A stretch of 16,649 nucleotides of DNA from Candidatus Hodarchaeota archaeon (GCA_029856365.1 JAHQWW010000082.1:1-16649); one strand, 5' to 3'; positions 1-9,900 are shown, counted from the first letter of the stretch. Made by a program: numbers and translations. Notes: generated by a model not told the origin, from the letters alone.

Positions 1-864
1 AATCCTGTCTGTATTTTATTAGTTACCACACTTTTAGTATTTTCACATATAGTTATCCAACAACAGAAGCTCCGAAAAATAAATGAATGCTGTATCTGTA
101 GAAGAAGTATTACGAAAAATGAAGAAATAGTCATTTGTTCAGATTGTCAAACGATTTATCATCATAAACATTTATCTCTATGGTTGAAAATAAGAAAACA
201 ATGTCCTATATGTAAAAGAAGAATTGGAAATCATAATATATATTCTTTTGACGATATCAAAGCCTTTCATTCCGCAATTAGCAAAGATATCTCAAAAAAC
301 CGTATTATTTCAAATCAAAGGAAACAGAAAGGAAAAATTCGACCATCCTATATTCGTGGGGATTCTTTTGTATTAGAGTGTCCCCATTGCAAAAATATCT
401 TAGATTCACTAACTTATAAGGGCTTAAGTCAATGTCAAATGTGTGGTTCACGTATATCATGGATAAATGATCTTGTATCAAGTATTAAAAATCTAAATAA
501 CCTAACTCATGACAAAAAAAAGAGAATTAGAATAAAGAACTTTTGCGGAAATAGAGGAAAAAACGATAGAAGAATAAGCTTTCGAAATATTCAAAGGCAG
601 AAAGAGAGAAAACGAAAATTTTTTCAAAAAGAATTACAGAAACAAGCAGAAATGGAATCGCAAGATCAAATACTTTTACTCAATAAAGATTACTTAAAAA
701 GACAAACACAACTACTAGGTCATAAACAATACATTCCCTTGAGAATAATAGAATTTGAGGATAAAAAAGAGAATTTGAGAAAAACAAATTTTTTTGAACT
801 AGAAAATGTTATGATGCTTATAATGGTTATAACACTCATAATTTTTGTTACTATTTTGGTTTAG
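1..864 (+). CDS. RING-variant zinc finger protein with a second Zn ribbon and a C-terminal membrane anchor (5'-partial; putative E3 ligase)
   Basis: Frame 1 is open from base 1, so the ORF-track start at 184 cuts through the domain. Bases 88-213 translate to CCIC-x12-CSDC-x4-HHKH-LSLW-x6-CPIC. A CPHC-x14-CQMC pair lies at 379-444, followed by a basic/charged helix and a hydrophobic C-terminus (VMMLIMVITLIIFVTILV). Confidence 0.8.
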   Translation, partial: NPVCILLVTTLLVFSHIVIQQQKLRKINECCICRRSITKNEEIVICSDCQTIYHHKHLSLWLKIRKQCPICKRRIGNHNIYSFDDIKAFHSAISKDISKNRIISNQRKQKGKIRPSYIRGDSFVLECPHCKNILDSLTYKGLSQCQMCGSRISWINDLVSSIKNLNNLTHDKKKRIRIKNFCGNRGKNDRRISFRNIQRQKERKRKFFQKELQKQAEMESQDQILLLNKDYLKRQTQLLGHKQYIPLRIIEFEDKKENLRKTNFFELENVMMLIMVITLIIFVTILV

Positions 865-2910: not shown

Positions 2911-3423
2911 ATGCGTTCTGAAATGCATCCTTTCATCACTTTAAAGATTAAGAACTGGGTTTTTAACTTGAACCGTTTGAATCCTAATAAACTACATGTA
3001 ACAATTTCGCCCCCAACAACCGCTGATTCACCTATAATACCTCGCTGCTATACATTAACACATTCAGATCGGACAGGAGATTTATTTTTAACCATTGCAA
3101 ATGAATTTATCAAAAAACAACTGAAAAGATGGCAAACACGAATAATGCGTGATGAGGTGTTGGCGGAATGGGTGAAAACCGAAGAAATATTTTCACTCCA
3201 TGTCTATTGTCAAATCAGTGGGGGAATTGGTCCAATAAAGTTTCGAGATAAAATTTTTCGTCAAGAATTACCCTTAGTGTTTGAAGCTTTTCGATATGGC
3301 GATCAGAAGTTATTCGCTGCCAATCCTTTCCTTGACAAGGCACAGATTTGGGTACACTTCCGATCAAAAAAGGAAAAATACAATAAAGTCGAAGAATGGG
3401 GAATTCCTGAAAATTATAAATAA
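2911..3423 (+). CDS. Staygreen (SGR) family protein, Mg-dechelatase homologue
   Basis: Family motifs: LNPNKLHV, PRCYTLTHSDRTGDLFLTI, RDEVLAEW, LHVYC, IFRQELPLVFEAFRYGD, IWVHFRS, YNKVEEWG. A more likely start is the in-frame TTG at 2968. Confidence 0.92.
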   Translation: MRSEMHPFITLKIKNWVFNLNRLNPNKLHVTISPPTTADSPIIPRCYTLTHSDRTGDLFLTIANEFIKKQLKRWQTRIMRDEVLAEWVKTEEIFSLHVYCQISGGIGPIKFRDKIFRQELPLVFEAFRYGDQKLFAANPFLDKAQIWVHFRSKKEKYNKVEEWGIPENYK

Positions 3424-3708: not shown

Positions 3709-4296
3709 TTAGCTTGAAGCCAGTCTTAAACGTAGAAATTGAGCAACTTTCTTTAATCCTAACCCATTAACCATAGAAGTGGCAATCACATCGAATTGCC
3801 CGATTAAGTCCTTTTTGATAGATAAATGTAGTAATTTTTGAATGGACTCCTCAACTTCGTTAGTTAATTCATTGATTGGTTGTTTTTGATTTTTCTTATA
3901 TATTAAATCTAGTTTATTACAAATAATTATACAGGGTTTCTCCCCTAATTCTGGAAGAACGCGAGTATTGAATTCATCTCTCATCTCAAGATATCTGTCT
4001 TTATCATGCGTGTCTATGACGAAGATAACGGCATTCCCTTTTTCGAGATATGCTTTCCATTGCTTACGTAACTTCTCTTGTCCTCCTAAATCAAACACAG
4101 AAGCTGAAACTAATCCTCCTCTTATCGAAACACTTTCTAAAGTAGGTGATAGAGTAGGACTTAGATTTGGATTAAATTTGCCAGTTTTCCAACGGTAAAC
4201 AAGAGCAGTCTTTCCAGCAAAATCCAATCCACAAAGTACTAATTTTATAGGAGATCCAATTATTCGGGCTAAATGTTCAGGATTGACCATAATCAA
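3709..4296 (-). CDS. Arf/Arl-family small GTPase
   Basis: G1 GLDFAGKT, G2 PT, G3 DLGGQ followed by EKLRKQWKAY, AVIFVID, G4 NKLD, G5-like TSMVNGLGL. The likely start is the ATG at 4290. Confidence 0.95.
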   Translation of the reverse strand: MIMVNPEHLARIIGSPIKLVLCGLDFAGKTALVYRWKTGKFNPNLSPTLSPTLESVSIRGGLVSASVFDLGGQEKLRKQWKAYLEKGNAVIFVIDTHDKDRYLEMRDEFNTRVLPELGEKPCIIICNKLDLIYKKNQKQPINELTNEVEESIQKLLHLSIKKDLIGQFDVIATSMVNGLGLKKVAQFLRLRLASS

Positions 4297-4306
4297 TCAC
4301 TTATTA

Positions 4307-5833
4307 CTATCTAATCATATAACTACTTAAATGTATGACATTATTTCGATTTTTTTGAAAAATTTCTTGAAATTGAAGCAAATCAATCTCTACGTCACTA
4401 TCAAGTGTAGTAAACGTTGCAGGACGATTTCGTGATATCTCTTCAAAGTATGTTAAACTACTATTTTCAACTTTATATGTCATAATGATTATGTTTCCGT
4501 CTAGTGTCTCAAAAACTGGAAGAAAGACAACACTATCATCTGGAAGGATACCTCGCGTCATAAATTCTAATTGTGACTCTTTCTTTATGATATTGATGAA
4601 TTTATCTTTTAATTCTTCATTAACGATTAATTCAAGACGAAATTTTTTATTTATACTATCAATTATCCTTGGTAAGATAAATTCTAGATAACTGTCGTGG
4701 ATGATATTTATTCTAACATATTTCACATAGTTTAATTCCCTTTCTAACCTTTTAATAAAAGAATCATATGAATTTAAAGTTGATTGAAAGATTTCAGGAT
4801 CAATGAATTTTACGTACTTCATTGCATATTCTAAATGCTGAATATCGGCCTTATGAACAGAGTAAAACTCTCTAACAGGCTTATAAAGAGAATCTGCGAT
4901 CTCATCTAGTGATTTTACTAGTACAAGAGCAACAGTTGCTTTTGGATGACGTTCCTTCCCAGATTCGTGTCCTTTTGTCGAACCACTAAAAATAGTTTGA
5001 CAAAAGAGGCTTAAACCGCTCAAGATGATGTTAAAGTCCTTTTCTCCAGATATTGTTATTTGATTTCTTCCCTCTTCAAAAAATATTTTTATTTGAGTAG
5101 CAATTTTCGTTTGTTCAGTATTAGAATATCCTAAATAATTCAAATCTTTCTTTATCATTGAAGGATCTGTATGAATATCCTCTTTCTTAAAGGGTTTAAT
5201 TTTCTCTTTAAAGAAATTTCGTTTGGCTACATAACCCCCTTCATTGATTAAAGAAGCTAAAATGAAGCTTTCATTGCTCTGGAGAAATAGGGAGGAAAAT
5301 GCAAAATCCGTAAGGTGAAAAAGGGACTCAATGCGGTTTTTAAGAATCTTTAAATTCTGAAAATAATTAATCAGTGTTTTAAGACGGTTTTTTTCCTTAG
5401 GACTTATTATACATTTCTTGTGAATCCTATTTAGAAGATCGTGAGCATCTTGAGGAGTACCCAGAAGTTGAGAACCAAGCTTTTGAAGTGCTAATCTCTG
5501 GATTATATCCGATAATGGAGTGGTCAATATTATTGTTTTTGGACGGTGATGTGAGATCGATGTTAAACCAAGTGCTTCCAGAGTTGGAAGACCCGAAAGA
5601 AGACGATGTATCGTTATATCTAGATCTCTTGCTAAAGATGTTGTTTTCATTTTTCCCCCATGAAGAATTATTGATAACAATATTTGAGCTTCAAGGTCTG
5701 GTAATCCCGATTGAGTGAATAATCTTAATAAGCGAACCCTAAGAAAAGAATTAGCTGGAATTGGTTCTAAATATGCATTAGCAGGATTATTCTCTTTAAT
5801 AATTCGTACTGTTTTATCTCTGCGCCCTGACAT
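4307..5833 (-). CDS. TrmB-like transcriptional regulator with duplicated winged-HTH and a C-terminal effector-binding-like domain
   Basis: The N-terminal segment GLPDLEAQILLSIILHGG-KTTSLARDLDI-LLSGLPTLEALGL-HRPK-PLSDIIQRL fits the TrmB wHTH pattern. A second degenerate copy follows (LQSNESFILASLINEGG...ILSGL...HPK...SLDEIADSL). The C-terminal alpha/beta region resembles the PLD-like TrmB domain. GGAGT RBS at 5841-5845. Confidence 0.65.
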   Translation of the reverse strand: MSGRRDKTVRIIKENNPANAYLEPIPANSFLRVRLLRLFTQSGLPDLEAQILLSIILHGGKMKTTSLARDLDITIHRLLSGLPTLEALGLTSISHHRPKTIILTTPLSDIIQRLALQKLGSQLLGTPQDAHDLLNRIHKKCIISPKEKNRLKTLINYFQNLKILKNRIESLFHLTDFAFSSLFLQSNESFILASLINEGGYVAKRNFFKEKIKPFKKEDIHTDPSMIKKDLNYLGYSNTEQTKIATQIKIFFEEGRNQITISGEKDFNIILSGLSLFCQTIFSGSTKGHESGKERHPKATVALVLVKSLDEIADSLYKPVREFYSVHKADIQHLEYAMKYVKFIDPEIFQSTLNSYDSFIKRLERELNYVKYVRINIIHDSYLEFILPRIIDSINKKFRLELIVNEELKDKFINIIKKESQLEFMTRGILPDDSVVFLPVFETLDGNIIIMTYKVENSSLTYFEEISRNRPATFTTLDSDVEIDLLQFQEIFQKNRNNVIHLSSYMIR

Positions 5834-6070
5834 ATCTTTTACTCCATCTTTGACCTTAATAGATGTTCTTAAAAATTTTATTAATAAAAAAATTAAGATA
5901 ATATGTTTTAAGGCAAAAATAAAAATAACTTTAATTTGTTCATTCGTTCACAATTAGATTTCTTAGAAACTATTTTGAGAAGGAAAAGAAATGTATGTAA
6001 ATACGATATATTTCATGGTTTATTCTTTGTTGAATCGGATTAAATGTAATTCATAAGAGTGTAACTTGAA

Positions 6071-7021
6071 TTGTCACTGCAAAGGATTTTTCAACAGGTG
6101 TTTATTCAAACATTTATAGATTCTGGGCCTGTGATATTAGATTATTTTTCCACGGATCTTTTAGAAGAGAATCTAACTACTCTAGCATTACGACTTCAAC
6201 TGAGGGTGGTTGAGGGGTTAGATACAGAAAAACAAAAAACAATATATAACGAACTTTGCGGTCCTGACTCAGCTGTGACTGGGAATAGGACTATATGGTA
6301 TAATTGGCGGATTAATAATCAATTCTCAAATGATAAACGGATTTTGGAATATGGTACCCCGTTGTCTGTGTTTCTAATTTATGAGAGAGAAGATGAAGAT
6401 TTAATCAATACATCACGAGGGGTCATTGAGGAAGTTTTCAATAAATTAAGTATTGATCTTCGTTCAATTGATGAGATCTTGAAAAAAATTTTTGGTTCAA
6501 ACTATGATAATGCATTAAAATGCTATCAAGAGGTTATAAATAATCCACAATCCCGCTATTTTGCCAAAGACCTAATTGAAGTATTGACTCAGGCAATGAC
6601 TCAACATTACAAAGAGATATCTAAATCTTTGCCAGATACAACAAAGTTTAGGATTATATTACAAAGAATGGTATTCAAAGAGGGATTACCTGATGCTATA
6701 GAAAAGTCTCAAAGAAAAGATTATTGGCAAACAATTTTAGATCAACTTGATAAAATAATTAGACAACTGGAGAGTCATACCGAGGAGTTGTTTCTAAAAG
6801 AAGATTTATTACGAGTATATAAGTTACTTGCATCTCAACGAGTTTGGCGTGATCTACCAATAACAAGGATTCCAGATCATCGAATACAAGAAATTGATGT
6901 TTCAAATTTCTTTTTTTGGGCATGGTTAGGGCTTAAAGGAATAGTAAAAGAGAAATGGATTAGAAATCTTTATCGTGATCTACGAAATGACAAAATAGAT
7001 CTATTTGATCATTCTGAATGA
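6071..7021 (+). CDS. Hypothetical protein with a putative N-terminal uDENN/longin-like domain
   Basis: 316-aa ORF with a TTG start. It opens with strand-F-x-D-x-GP-strand (VFIQTFIDSGPVIL), then a helix, LCGP, the strand IWYNWRI, DKR, and the strand LSVFLIY. The C-terminal half is helical. The ORF is confident; the domain call is tentative. Confidence 0.55.
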   Translation: MSLQRIFQQVFIQTFIDSGPVILDYFSTDLLEENLTTLALRLQLRVVEGLDTEKQKTIYNELCGPDSAVTGNRTIWYNWRINNQFSNDKRILEYGTPLSVFLIYEREDEDLINTSRGVIEEVFNKLSIDLRSIDEILKKIFGSNYDNALKCYQEVINNPQSRYFAKDLIEVLTQAMTQHYKEISKSLPDTTKFRIILQRMVFKEGLPDAIEKSQRKDYWQTILDQLDKIIRQLESHTEELFLKEDLLRVYKLLASQRVWRDLPITRIPDHRIQEIDVSNFFFWAWLGLKGIVKEKWIRNLYRDLRNDKIDLFDHSE

Positions 7022-7593: not shown

Positions 7594-9900
7594 ATGATAG
7601 TTATATCTTGTCTGATAGCATTTTTTTTCATTCTAGAAGGGATAATCAGTTTTTATCATCCTTTGGTTTCTAATAATGAAACATCAGGACCTATTTCATT
7701 TATTAAAGATGAAACTACAAAATTCCCTCAACTCTCTGCTAGTGAGTGGAACATGGATATAAATCTAGGTAAAGTCAACGCCTCATTCATTGGGGAAAAA
7801 AGTGAGGATGTATCTGGATGGGCCGTGGCTGGTGTGGGTGATGTCAATAATGATGGTTATGATGATATTATTATTGGAGCAACATCAAATAATGAGGGTG
7901 GAGAAAACGCTGGAAAGACATATCTTATCTTTGGTCGTTCAACAGCTCTTTGGCAGATGGATATTAACTTGTCGGAAGCTGATGTCTCCTTTATTGGGGA
8001 AGATAGTCATGACAATTCTGGTTTTGCTGTAGCGGGGGCTGGTGATGTTAATAATGATGGTTATGATGATATAGTGATTGGAGCAAGCGGGGATGAGGAG
8101 GGAGGAAATGATGCAGGCCAGACATACTTGATTCTTGGTCGGCCGACAAATCAATGGCAAATAGATATAGACCTAGCTGAAGCTAATGCTTCTTTTATCG
8201 GAGAAGATTATGCTGATAGTTCAGGATGGTCCGTTACAGGAGTAGGGGACGTCAATAATGATAATTTTGATGATATTGTGATTGGAGCAAGCGGGGATGA
8301 GGAGGGAGGAACTGGCGCAGGCCAGACATACTTGATTCTTGGTCGGCCGACCAACCAATGGCGAATGGATGTAGACTTAGCTGAAGCCAATGCCTCCTTC
8401 ATTGGGGAAGATGGCTTTGATTATTCGGGATGGGCTGTGACAGGTGCTGGAGACGTTAATAATGATAGTTTTGATGATATTCTGATTGGAGCTTATAATG
8501 ATGAGGAGGGGGGACTTGGTGCAGGCCAGACGTACTTGATTCTTGGTCGCCCAACAAATCAATGGCAAATGGATATAGACCTAGCTGAAGCTAACGCCTC
8601 CTTTATCGGAGAAGATAACCTGTATAACTCAGGAAATGCAGTGGCAAGTGTTGGTGATACCAATAAAGATGGTTTTGATGATATTATAATTGGAGCAAGG
8701 GGTAGTTGGGAAGCGGGAAGCGGGTCAGGACAAGCGTACCTGATTCTTGGCCGTCCAACAAATCAATGGCGGGTGGACACAGATCTATCTGAGGCCAATG
8801 CTTCCTTTATTGGGGAAGATAATTATGATGCAGCGGGATGGGCTGTAGCAGGTGCGGGTGATGTCAATAATGACGGTTTTGCTGACATTTTGATTAGCGC
8901 TAGTGGGGATGAAGAGGGAGGAGAAAAAGCAGGTCAAACATACTTGATTCTACCCTATATACCTCCTAAGATAAACATTACTAGTCCAATTAATACGATA
9001 TATAGGCAGAAAAACGTCACTTTAACCTATACTGTATCCAATGGCAAAATCACATTTTACATTGATGGTATAAGAAACACTACAATCCTCCCTAGTGGAT
9101 CAATCCTCTCAAACTTACTAGATGGAATACATAATGTTACATTAGTAGTAGTAGACCAAGGTGAAAATGTGTATATTAACACCATTATCTTTACTTTGGA
9201 TAACACTCCTCCCATTATAACCATTAATTCTCCCACTCCAGGTACTTATACTACCAATATAATAACATTGAGTCTCTTCGGTGGTTCTAACCATTATTGG
9301 TATTATATAGAAGATGTCGACACAACGAATCAAACTTGGACCGCAATCACCGATCGAGCGCTTTCAGACGGGATTTATACTTTGCATGTGTATGGGAATG
9401 ATTCTATTGGGAATGAAGGACATGCAAGTGTAATATTCAGTATTGATACTACTCCACCTAATCTTGTGATTGATTCTCCATTACCAATGATTTATACAAC
9501 CAACACAATTAACATGAATTTCTCTGGTAATGCAGACAACTATTGGTATTATATAGAAAGTATCGATGACACAAATCAGTCATGGAATGAACTAATGAAC
9601 CGGACATTCTCAGATGGTACTTTCATTCTTCATGTATATGGAAATGACTCTGTGGGGAATGAAGCAGTTGTATCTGTGACTTTTACGATAAATACCAATA
9701 CAACAACGAATACACAAGACAGTAAAATAACCACCTCTATCACGAGAAACATTGGAGGAGACGAAATTGTACTTATCCTCAGTACTAGTATTCTAGGAGG
9801 TTTAAGTTTTATTGGAGTTCTTTCTCTAATAATTCGAAGGGAGCTATTGAAAAAAGGGGAGGAACTACCACCAGATAATTTACTTTCTCTTGATGAATAG
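7594..9900 (+). CDS. Cell-surface protein: FG-GAP (integrin-alpha-type) repeats, three Ig-like domains, Thr-rich stalk, C-terminal TM anchor
   Basis: N-terminal hydrophobic segment; six GDVNNDGxDDIIIGA...G.TYLI.G repeats; three PP.I.I.SP...DG...L...D..GN Ig-like units; many N-x-S/T sequons; TM segment IVLILSTSILGGLSFIGVLSLII followed by RR and a short tail. Confidence 0.92.
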   Translation: MIVISCLIAFFFILEGIISFYHPLVSNNETSGPISFIKDETTKFPQLSASEWNMDINLGKVNASFIGEKSEDVSGWAVAGVGDVNNDGYDDIIIGATSNNEGGENAGKTYLIFGRSTALWQMDINLSEADVSFIGEDSHDNSGFAVAGAGDVNNDGYDDIVIGASGDEEGGNDAGQTYLILGRPTNQWQIDIDLAEANASFIGEDYADSSGWSVTGVGDVNNDNFDDIVIGASGDEEGGTGAGQTYLILGRPTNQWRMDVDLAEANASFIGEDGFDYSGWAVTGAGDVNNDSFDDILIGAYNDEEGGLGAGQTYLILGRPTNQWQMDIDLAEANASFIGEDNLYNSGNAVASVGDTNKDGFDDIIIGARGSWEAGSGSGQAYLILGRPTNQWRVDTDLSEANASFIGEDNYDAAGWAVAGAGDVNNDGFADILISASGDEEGGEKAGQTYLILPYIPPKINITSPINTIYRQKNVTLTYTVSNGKITFYIDGIRNTTILPSGSILSNLLDGIHNVTLVVVDQGENVYINTIIFTLDNTPPIITINSPTPGTYTTNIITLSLFGGSNHYWYYIEDVDTTNQTWTAITDRALSDGIYTLHVYGNDSIGNEGHASVIFSIDTTPPNLVIDSPLPMIYTTNTINMNFSGNADNYWYYIESIDDTNQSWNELMNRTFSDGTFILHVYGNDSVGNEAVVSVTFTINTNTTTNTQDSKITTSITRNIGGDEIVLILSTSILGGLSFIGVLSLIIRRELLKKGEELPPDNLLSLDE
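7753..8955 (+). repeat. Six tandem 204-bp (68-aa) FG-GAP coding repeats
   Basis: Units start at 7753, 7957, 8161, 8365, 8569 and 8773 (exact 204-nt period). Example of identity: a 34-nt stretch at 8074-8107 matches 8278-8311. Confidence 0.92.

Follow-up and report, generated by a model that had tools for sequence, protein, structure and literature searches.

Co-inheritance of an Arf-family GTPase, a longin protein and a TrmB-like winged-helix protein in one genus of Hodarchaeales: a possible signalling cassette

The 16,649-nucleotide stretch of DNA analysed here (GCA_029856365.1, JAHQWW010000082.1:1-16649; hereafter the window) comes from a Candidatus Hodarchaeota archaeon whose assembly is 83.6% complete in 204 contigs. 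It carries genes for an Arf-family GTPase, a 508-residue TrmB-like protein and a 316-residue longin protein, and comparison of Asgard genomes shows that the three are inherited together and only together. It is possible, and is put forward tentatively, that they belong to a signalling cassette confined to this lineage and centred on an Arf-family GTP switch, with the longin protein as its regulator and the winged helix-turn-helix (wHTH) protein as its output. A preliminary description of the window, made from its sequence, had proposed a three-part switch of this kind, coupling a eukaryote-like GTPase to transcription rather than to membrane traffic. The features concerned, numbered from the first nucleotide of the window, are these:

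3709-4296, minus strand: gene for the Arf-related small GTPase, 195 residues from TTG 4296, probably 193 residues from ATG 4290
4297-4306, minus strand: inter-gene spacer of 10 nucleotides (16 to the ATG), read from the sequence
4307-5833, minus strand: gene for the TrmB-like protein, 508 residues, from the open reading frame and its homologues
5834-6070, no strand assigned: AT-rich divergent spacer of 237 bp, read from the sequence; both promoters and any operator are presumed to lie inside
6071-7021, plus strand: gene for the longin protein, 316 residues, from the open reading frame and its homologues
7594-9900, plus strand: gene for a surface protein, 768 residues, from Pfam FG-GAP and Big_13
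9865-9894, plus strand: cytoplasmic tail motif LPPDNLLSLD(E), ending one residue ahead of the stop

Open reading frame (ORF) calls and direct reading place the three genes, the gap of 10-16 nucleotides and the 237-bp divergent spacer just where the preliminary description had put them. The gene for the 508-residue protein stops at TAG 4309-4307, and the two possible starts of the GTPase follow 10 nucleotides (TTG 4296) and 16 nucleotides (ATG 4290) further on; an alignment of ten orthologues supports the ATG. Because each of the three has conserved protein homologues in other assemblies, all three ORFs are real genes.

The family of the 508-residue protein occurs in 10 of the 22 genomes of one GTDB genus within the Hodarchaeales and in none of the 377 other Asgard genomes searched. 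The clade to which the window GTPase belongs is present in exactly the same ten genomes, always adjoining the gene for the 508-residue protein. The longin family is found in eight of the ten; the remaining two have contigs that break off within that gene or immediately next to it. Several genomes of the genus in which the gene is missing are 91-99% complete, and the cassette is therefore accessory. Wherever the flanks have been assembled the order is the same: longin gene, divergent spacer (147-263 bp across loci), gene for the 508-residue protein, Arf gene. The trio first seen in the window is thus a recurrent arrangement within the genus and not a peculiarity of a single genome. Between the stop of the 508-residue protein and the start of the Arf gene the distance runs from an 8-nucleotide overlap to 23 nucleotides, and is mostly 6-7 nucleotides; as gene spacing, this implies that the two genes are co-transcribed, and the Arf gene is probably also translationally coupled to its neighbour.

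Identities to the window over the genomes of nine other species are 41-88% for the Arf protein, 33-81% for the 508-residue protein and 28-88% for the 316-residue protein. The locus types differ more sharply, being 29-37% identical to the window in the longin and 508-residue proteins and 41-48% in the Arf protein, and one genome (G019) carries two cassette types. Since a conserved longin gene elsewhere in these genomes is 62-89% identical, the types must be either old paralogues or fast-evolving, with the partners kept. A single, recently transferred island as the source of the loci is excluded by the low identities between types. The cassette loci all belong to a single genus and cannot be counted as independent; the recurrence of the arrangement in nine other species, together with divergence in step, makes it more than chance.

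The assignment of the GTPase to the Arf family, as made in the preliminary description, is borne out by Pfam Arf (PF00025: 103.5 bits, E 1.2e-29, cut-off 22.3) and by the closest solved relatives among PDB sequences, which are Arf1 from several eukaryotes (E 1e-19), followed by Sar1, Arf4-6 and Arl. Invariant in ten copies from the cassette are GLDFAGKT (G1), DLGGQ (G3), Trp80, NKLD (G4) and ATS (G5). Like other Arfs, the protein has the catalytic glutamine and no arginine in cis; a GTPase-activating protein (GAP) that supplies an arginine finger is therefore plausible. In Arf proteins an amphipathic N-terminal helix, myristoylated at Gly2 in eukaryotes, enters membranes when GTP is bound. The N-terminal extension of the present protein is 12-15 residues long, with no Gly2, a hydrophobic moment of 0.43-0.67 and a mean hydrophobicity of about 0.0-0.2, and membrane insertion or anchoring is not evident from its sequence. 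The Arf model finds about 57 matches in the window genome, among which the window GTPase ranks sixth. Arf proteins of the cassette match the window copy at 152-353 bits, compared with 65-82 bits for the next GTPase of the window genome; a match about twice as good as that to the best of the other small GTPases, of which there are roughly 57 in all, supports the linkage of the cassette genes. A profile of the clade likewise scores its members at 282-328 bits and all other GTPases in any genome at 99 bits or less. Within switch I (residues 45-53, 4152-4128, minus strand), type-1 copies read LSPTLSPTL, a tandem duplication of LSPT, and type-2 copies read LKPTLASTM at the same position.

The 316-residue protein has no match in Pfam or NCBIfam, and none of the 21 members of its family matches any Pfam family; a test of sequence-profile membership in Folliculin (PF11704) or NPR2 (PF06218) was negative for all 21, and a PDB sequence-profile search with the family returned nothing. 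Pfam NPR2 also found no match in the window genome, but the control genomes were equally silent and the result is uninformative. The family is tiny, with 11 relatives in an exhaustive profile search of 1.84 billion protein representatives, and the look-alikes offered by a protein language model are Asgard hypothetical proteins (0.76-0.81), which are weak leads. The fold is clearer. An AlphaFold2 model built from 21 sequences (predicted local distance difference test score, pLDDT, 86) consists of a longin domain at residues 3-180 and an all-helical C-terminal domain at residues 186-305. By DSSP the former has the topology bb-a-bbb-aa, with beta1 at 7-16, beta2 at 19-27, alpha1 at 35-48, beta3 at 62-67, beta4 at 73-82 and beta5 at 96-104, followed by helices. 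Its matches to solved longin structures, which align over 125-149 residues (8yqg, Lst4, NPRL2/3, the FLCN complex and SMCR8), are listed below; the unbiased VIA search covered 48,161 chains.

Lokiarchaeota Roadblock-Longin longin domain 8yqg: Foldseek E 1.8e-4 (top match); VIA Z 11.9 over 149 of 154 residues at 3.6 Å; unbiased VIA Z 11.6
Lst4 longin: Foldseek E 7.2e-2; VIA Z 10.1; unbiased VIA Z 9.8
NPRL2, NPRL3 and yeast Npr2: Foldseek E 8.3e-3 to 5.8e-2; VIA Z about 9; unbiased VIA Z 8.4-8.7
FLCN-FNIP2 complex chains: Foldseek E 7.5e-3; VIA Z 8.8; unbiased VIA Z 8.8
C9orf72-SMCR8 complex chains: not among the Foldseek matches listed; VIA Z 8.8; unbiased VIA Z 7.2-7.6

The gene had been described as uDENN/longin-like. 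The longin part of that name is well founded, for the domain is of the FLCN/NPRL2/Lst4 class and carries their GP motif, but the DENN part is not: residues 186-316 are predicted to form helices only, with no strand, and no DENN family of Pfam matches. The protein should be called a longin protein and not uDENN. Its GP motif, Gly19-Pro20 in the beta1-beta2 loop, is invariant in the 12 members that bear the N-terminal domain, and Gly19 is at least 90% conserved among the 21 sequences. A GP motif just ahead of strand 2, adjoining the arginine finger, is specific to the GAP-type longins FLCN, NPRL2, SMCR8 and C9orf72, and is found in one class of Heimdallarchaeia longins as well (PMC12290439). Also invariant in the family are S86-x-D88-x-R90, within the beta4-beta5 loop, and Arg73, where beta4 begins. 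In the longin sheet the strand order is 2-1-5-4-3, which puts the beta4-beta5 loop beside the beta1-beta2 loop; from this topology, Arg90 is the better candidate for an arginine finger.

Other longin genes of the window genome were noted. A distant relative of the family (G000:C150:25773-26813, minus strand, 346 residues, E 1.8e-11 to the family profile) has an ADTGP motif, and no GTPase or wHTH gene was noticed near it. A Folliculin-type longin of 443 residues (G000:C9:52650-53978, minus strand, locus L047; Pfam Folliculin 31.4 bits) has an HGP motif and a D-P-K-A-R-G-K-N-R loop, and is conserved, with 62-89% identity, in all but one of 21 genomes from the genus. Upstream of it is a 164-residue ORF that appears roadblock-like by eye, and an Arf-model match lies about 5 kb away (C9:47503-48018).

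Sequence searches are equally unrevealing for the 508-residue protein: there is no Pfam or NCBIfam match to the window copy, a PDB sequence-profile search with the family gave nothing meaningful, and the language-model look-alikes, archaeal helix-turn-helix (HTH) regulators at 0.87-0.88, are weak leads. The AlphaFold2 model, built from ten homologues, is of middling confidence (pLDDT 70.8), and its multi-domain superpositions have high root-mean-square deviations (rmsd). It contains a first wHTH domain (about 28-121), a helical linker, a second wHTH domain (about 169-273) and an alpha/beta domain like that of phospholipase D (PLD; about 278-505). The first wHTH domain superimposes on MarR/Zalpha-type wHTH domains with Z 10-11 and rmsd 1.4-2.3 Å over 62 residues. 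A GG-x3-K signature in the second repeats one in the first, which points to internal duplication of the wHTH unit. With Foldseek, the model matches TrmBL2 (5bpd, E 1.6e-3, probability 0.99) and TrmB (3qph, E 5.6e-3), the probabilities for TrmB/TrmBL2 being 0.97-0.99; the PLD-fold proteins PPK1 and Zucchini are also among the matches. TrmB/TrmBL2 superpositions span 205-214 residues. In an unbiased fold search, 214 residues of TrmB 3qph align to residues 169-505 of the model with Z 9.1, at an rmsd of 18 Å because the domain orientations differ. PLD-like domains of FAM83 match residues 351-504 (Z 9.3-9.8). Residues of an HKD motif are not conserved in the family, and the C-terminal domain has no invariant histidine or lysine; the PLD-like domain is therefore non-catalytic.

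Thus a TrmB-like architecture with an added wHTH domain is supported by the model at the level of fold, though not proven by sequence. The wHTH folds and TrmB-like layout of the regulator that had been proposed are recovered in the model and the fold searches, whereas membership of the TrmB family by sequence falls below threshold. Both of the folds that the preliminary description ascribed to the neighbours of the GTPase, wHTH and longin, are accordingly present in the models. The wing of the first wHTH domain has an invariant S-H-x-R-P-K stretch, which may resemble the R-P-K wing of TrmB proteins; the recognition helix of the same domain is poor in basic residues.

A fourth gene is linked to the trio. 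The window gene 3' of the longin gene encodes a 768-residue surface protein with a signal peptide, FG-GAP repeats (Pfam E 2.7e-38), immunoglobulin (Ig)-like Big domains (Big_13), a single membrane helix towards the C-terminus and a short tail in the cytoplasm, its hydrophobic segments lying at residues 1-25 and 724-747. In every locus in which the region is assembled, the gene at this place encodes a type-I surface protein. Type-2 loci have a 220-residue Ig-like protein after the longin gene and then an 880-residue secreted and anchored protein; at G014:C307, a 352-residue protein with Y_Y_Y and PKD-like domains follows the longin gene. BLAST detects no relation between the ectodomains of different loci. 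The tails end in LPP[ED][DN]xLxL[ED], with LPPEDxLELE in five other loci and KLPPIDPFDLE at G014:C307; the pattern [LIVM]PP[ED][DN]x[LIVM]x[LIVM][ED] occurs once among the 6,373 ORFs of at least 80 residues in the window genome. Large proteins of about 880-1276 residues, with a signal peptide and no Pfam match, are encoded after the small tail-motif protein in type-2 loci and at G014:C307 (L016:9191-11833, L019:9021-11699 and L045:1-3830); the copies of 880-892 residues have a C-terminal anchor, 60% mutual identity and no tail motif.

The sole locus without the tail motif is one in which the longin domain is itself fused to a membrane protein. This 525-residue fusion (G014:C369, L020) comprises a signal or anchor segment, an outer part, a membrane helix and the longin domain as cytoplasmic end, and its gene lies on the same strand as, and directly before, the genes for the 508-residue protein and the Arf protein. 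NCBI and JGI called the fusion ORF independently in separate assemblies (P0029, P0037). The absence of the tail only where the longin domain is membrane-fused suggests that one of the cytoplasmic proteins of the cassette may be recruited by the tail, though we give such docking no more than the weight of a minority reading. Two further fusions involve the longin family: P0030, from a Hodarchaeota metagenome-assembled genome, joins a Ras-family GTPase (Pfam Ras E 8e-16) through an insert to the C-terminal domain of the longin protein, and P0026 joins a longin domain to an alpha/beta domain. The conserved tail motif and the longin fusions are new findings of this analysis. A membrane-anchored surface protein whose tail is conserved constantly accompanies the cassette, and one longin relative is fused to a membrane protein; both facts weaken the contention that the GTPase serves transcription rather than membrane traffic.

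An insert of about 100 residues with paired cysteines (C-x4-C ... C), located between the longin domain or GTPase and the helical C-terminal domain, was seen in P0025, P0030 and L045:5320-6600, and may be a zinc-binding module. In G018 (L009/L046:2183-2626, plus strand) the gene after the cassette Arf encodes an HTH protein of 147 residues that is ArsR/MarR-like (HTH_20 E 3e-5) and hydrophobic at its C-terminus.

If the cassette is a signalling system, an input at the surface might reach the longin regulator first, then the Arf switch and finally the wHTH protein as output, with the logic that has been proposed for actinobacterial conservons. The longin protein would set the nucleotide state of the GTPase, most likely as a GAP; this role is favoured because the GP motif and the Arg-bearing beta4-beta5 loop are like those of FLCN, NPRL2 and SMCR8, and because C9orf72-SMCR8 provides a precedent. 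It may work as a dimer, and it may dock on the tail of the surface protein. In its GTP-bound or its GDP-bound state, the GTPase would then bind the TrmB-like protein, the likeliest site being the non-catalytic PLD-like domain, which would occupy the place of the sugar-binding domain of TrmB. Such binding could alter the interaction of the protein with DNA at the divergent promoter region and perhaps elsewhere. We infer GTPase control of transcription in this way; the binding, DNA-binding and GAP or guanine-nucleotide exchange factor (GEF) roles of the cassette proteins are all predicted. A more specific pathway can be drawn from outside to inside, in which the LPPEDxLxLE tail of an integrin-like (FG-GAP/Ig) receptor recruits the GAP-type longin, which sets the state of the Arf protein, and Arf-GTP is the ligand of the TrmB-like factor. 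We consider this version unlikely.

Several observations weigh against a GTPase switch acting on transcription. Membership of the 508-residue protein in TrmB is at the level of fold in the model, and Pfam TrmB (PF01978) reaches 22.4 bits, against a cut-off of 25.6, in one of 16 family members and does not match the window copy. The wHTH domains can serve protein contacts, as in ESCRT-II and RPC62, both of which are among the fold matches. No conserved operator or palindrome was found in the divergent spacer, where the G011 comparison is too close (86% identity) and the type-2 loci are too divergent to be informative; the inverted repeats seen within 5834-6070 are weak ones only. Eukaryotic longin GAPs are heterodimers of two longin proteins, and the cassette holds no second longin gene; moreover, longins are more often GEF platforms. 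The equation of Arg90 with the eukaryotic arginine finger is drawn from topology and from FLCN and NPRL2 sequences, and hhalign gave no alignment (probability 0.6%) between the longin domain and the Pfam-Folliculin longin family of the window genome (C9:52650-53978). Finally, the link to a surface protein would fit a membrane-centred role equally well.

That last point leads to an alternative in which the TrmB-like protein is an ordinary local regulator at the divergent spacer, possibly responsive to a ligand through its PLD-like domain, while the Arf, longin and surface proteins share a task at the membrane, such as placing the surface protein, clustering it or turning it over, and the GTPase does not act on the regulator. 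A wHTH regulator in a divergent layout is the commonest prokaryotic arrangement for local control, and the effector domains of the TrmB family, matched here in fold, are established binders of small molecules. A surface protein that is anchored in the membrane and has a conserved tail always goes with the cassette, in one locus the longin domain is itself part of a membrane protein, and Asgard Arfs bind membranes in a nucleotide-dependent manner (PMC11914678). Less easily accommodated is the GTPase gene, which in every locus lies 3-23 nucleotides after the regulator gene or overlaps it; such tight spacing suggests matched amounts of the two proteins and not the relation of a regulator to its target. 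The Arf clade, moreover, is never found without the regulator, and its short N-terminal extension, with low hydrophobicity and no Gly2, gives no evident means of membrane anchoring. We regard this alternative as somewhat unlikely. It is also conceivable that the 508-residue protein does not bind DNA but is a scaffold or effector whose winged-helix and PLD-like domains make protein contacts, with all four proteins in a membrane-proximal complex on the tail of the surface protein. The tandem winged-helix protein RPC62/RPC3, ESCRT-II (3cuq) and the protein-binding PLD-like domain of FAM83 are among its fold matches; winged-helix domains serve protein contacts in ESCRT-II, RPC62 or NPRL2/3; weak Pfam BRO1 and EAP30 matches occur among family members; and the dearth of basic residues in the first recognition helix would agree, as would a divergent spacer in which no operator was found. 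The strongest and most numerous matches of the first wHTH domain, however, are DNA-binding regulators of the MarR/TrmB type (Z 10-11), its wing has the invariant S-H-x-R-P-K, and the language-model lead is to archaeal HTH regulators. A scaffold seems quite improbable.

Adjacency devoid of functional meaning would require one of about 57 small GTPase genes to lie beside a regulator and a longin gene by chance. The 57 Arf-model matches of the window genome offer many opportunities, and longin or roadblock genes do not, as a rule, share operons with Asgard GTPases (PMC10933270). Order and spacing are nevertheless shared by ten genomes in which identities are 29-48%, the phyletic patterns coincide, divergence keeps pace among the three proteins, and domain fusions link the families; chance adjacency is very improbable indeed. 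A defence-system reading gained no PADLOC match. The possible signalling cassette outlined above, with the Arf protein as switch and the wHTH protein as output, is the reading that we carry forward, tentatively.

Other genes of the window were also noted. The gene at 2911-3423 (plus strand), convergent with the Arf gene, encodes a 170-residue protein of the Staygreen family (Pfam PF12638, E 7.7e-50) in a non-photosynthetic archaeon; Staygreen is a family of plant Mg-dechelatases. Near it, at 963-2435, is a gene of the flavin amine-oxidase/phytoene-desaturase-like type. At 1-864 (plus strand), a frame open from the first base combines a zinc finger of the RING type (zf-RING_2, E 1.3e-6) with a zinc ribbon and, at the C-terminus, a hydrophobic helix.

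Descriptions already exist of the Arf-related GTPases of Asgard archaea and, separately, of longins with the GP motif, and the literature found does not deal with their gene neighbourhoods. Native regulators of the Asgard Arf are unknown, structure searches having given no convincing Arf GAP or GEF (PMC11914678), and the GTPase family served by the GP-motif longins has been left open (PMC12290439). Matching a regulator to an Asgard GTPase is seldom possible, since the two do not usually share an operon (PMC10933270). For one Arf clade, the cassette supplies a GAP-type longin matched to it by genome context, together with candidates for an effector and for a membrane input, in proteins small enough for expression and assay. 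If the link from Arf to wHTH protein is real, an Arf-family switch would be wired to transcription in a prokaryote, which would bear on the roles of Arf and longin proteins before eukaryotic endomembranes.

The closest eukaryotic parallels are the longin GAP complexes C9orf72-SMCR8, FLCN-FNIP and GATOR1 NPRL2-NPRL3, which act on Arf1, RagC and RagA, respectively. The longins of C9orf72-SMCR8 form a GAP for ARF1 with an arginine finger (PMC8213707). The cassette longin resembles these proteins in fold (Z 8.4-10.1, including Lst4), in the GP motif of the beta1-beta2 loop, in a conserved arginine in the neighbouring loop and in having an Arf-family partner gene. In contrast to them, it has a helical domain in place of DENN, is encoded by a single longin gene and shows no homology that was found at the level of sequence; its output would be a wHTH protein instead of mTORC1 and lysosomal machinery, and its GAP activity is predicted. 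Nearer in lineage are the "Folliculin/SMCR8-type" longins of Heimdallarchaeia (PMC12290439) and the domain 8yqg, which are of the same fold class, 8yqg being the best match (Z 11.6-11.9), and have the GP motif in common. Unlike these, the cassette longin is tied by synteny and co-occurrence to one Arf-related clade, and neither Pfam Folliculin nor Pfam NPR2 detects it.

With TrmB of P. furiosus (3qph) and TrmBL2 (5bpd), the 508-residue protein shares an N-terminal wHTH domain and a PLD-like C-terminal domain. It is about twice the size of TrmB, has an extra wHTH domain from internal duplication and scores below the Pfam TrmB cut-off; its predicted co-transcription with a GTPase was not found described for TrmB proteins in the literature searched. 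The GTPase itself is comparable to the Asgard Arf-related GTPases ArfR/AArf (Vargova et al., bioRxiv 10.1101/2024.02.28.582541; Zhu et al., PMC11914678), with all G motifs and a Hodarchaeales host, and its clade is distinguished by the short N-terminal extension of low hydrophobicity that lacks Gly2. These studies did not treat gene neighbourhoods and called the native regulators unknown.

In overall logic, the nearest known system is the bacterial conservon, with MglA-MglB. CvnA-D are a membrane sensor, a roadblock protein, a DUF742 HTH protein and a Ras-like GTPase, and a complex of the GTPase with the HTH repressor has been proposed (PMC8510531). The parts differ throughout. The cassette Arf is not MglA-like, the longin is not a roadblock/LC7 protein, and the 508-residue TrmB-like protein replaces a DUF742 protein of 136 residues; the surface protein is Ig-like/FG-GAP and not a histidine-kinase-like sensor, and the genes are divergent, in contrast to the single operon of the conservon. 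None of the four conservon families is present in the window by Pfam or NCBIfam, so that it is the logic alone that is common: in each case a membrane protein, a regulator of the roadblock/longin superfamily, an HTH protein and a small GTPase of the Ras superfamily are encoded together, with the proposed role of passing an external signal on to gene expression (PMC8510531).

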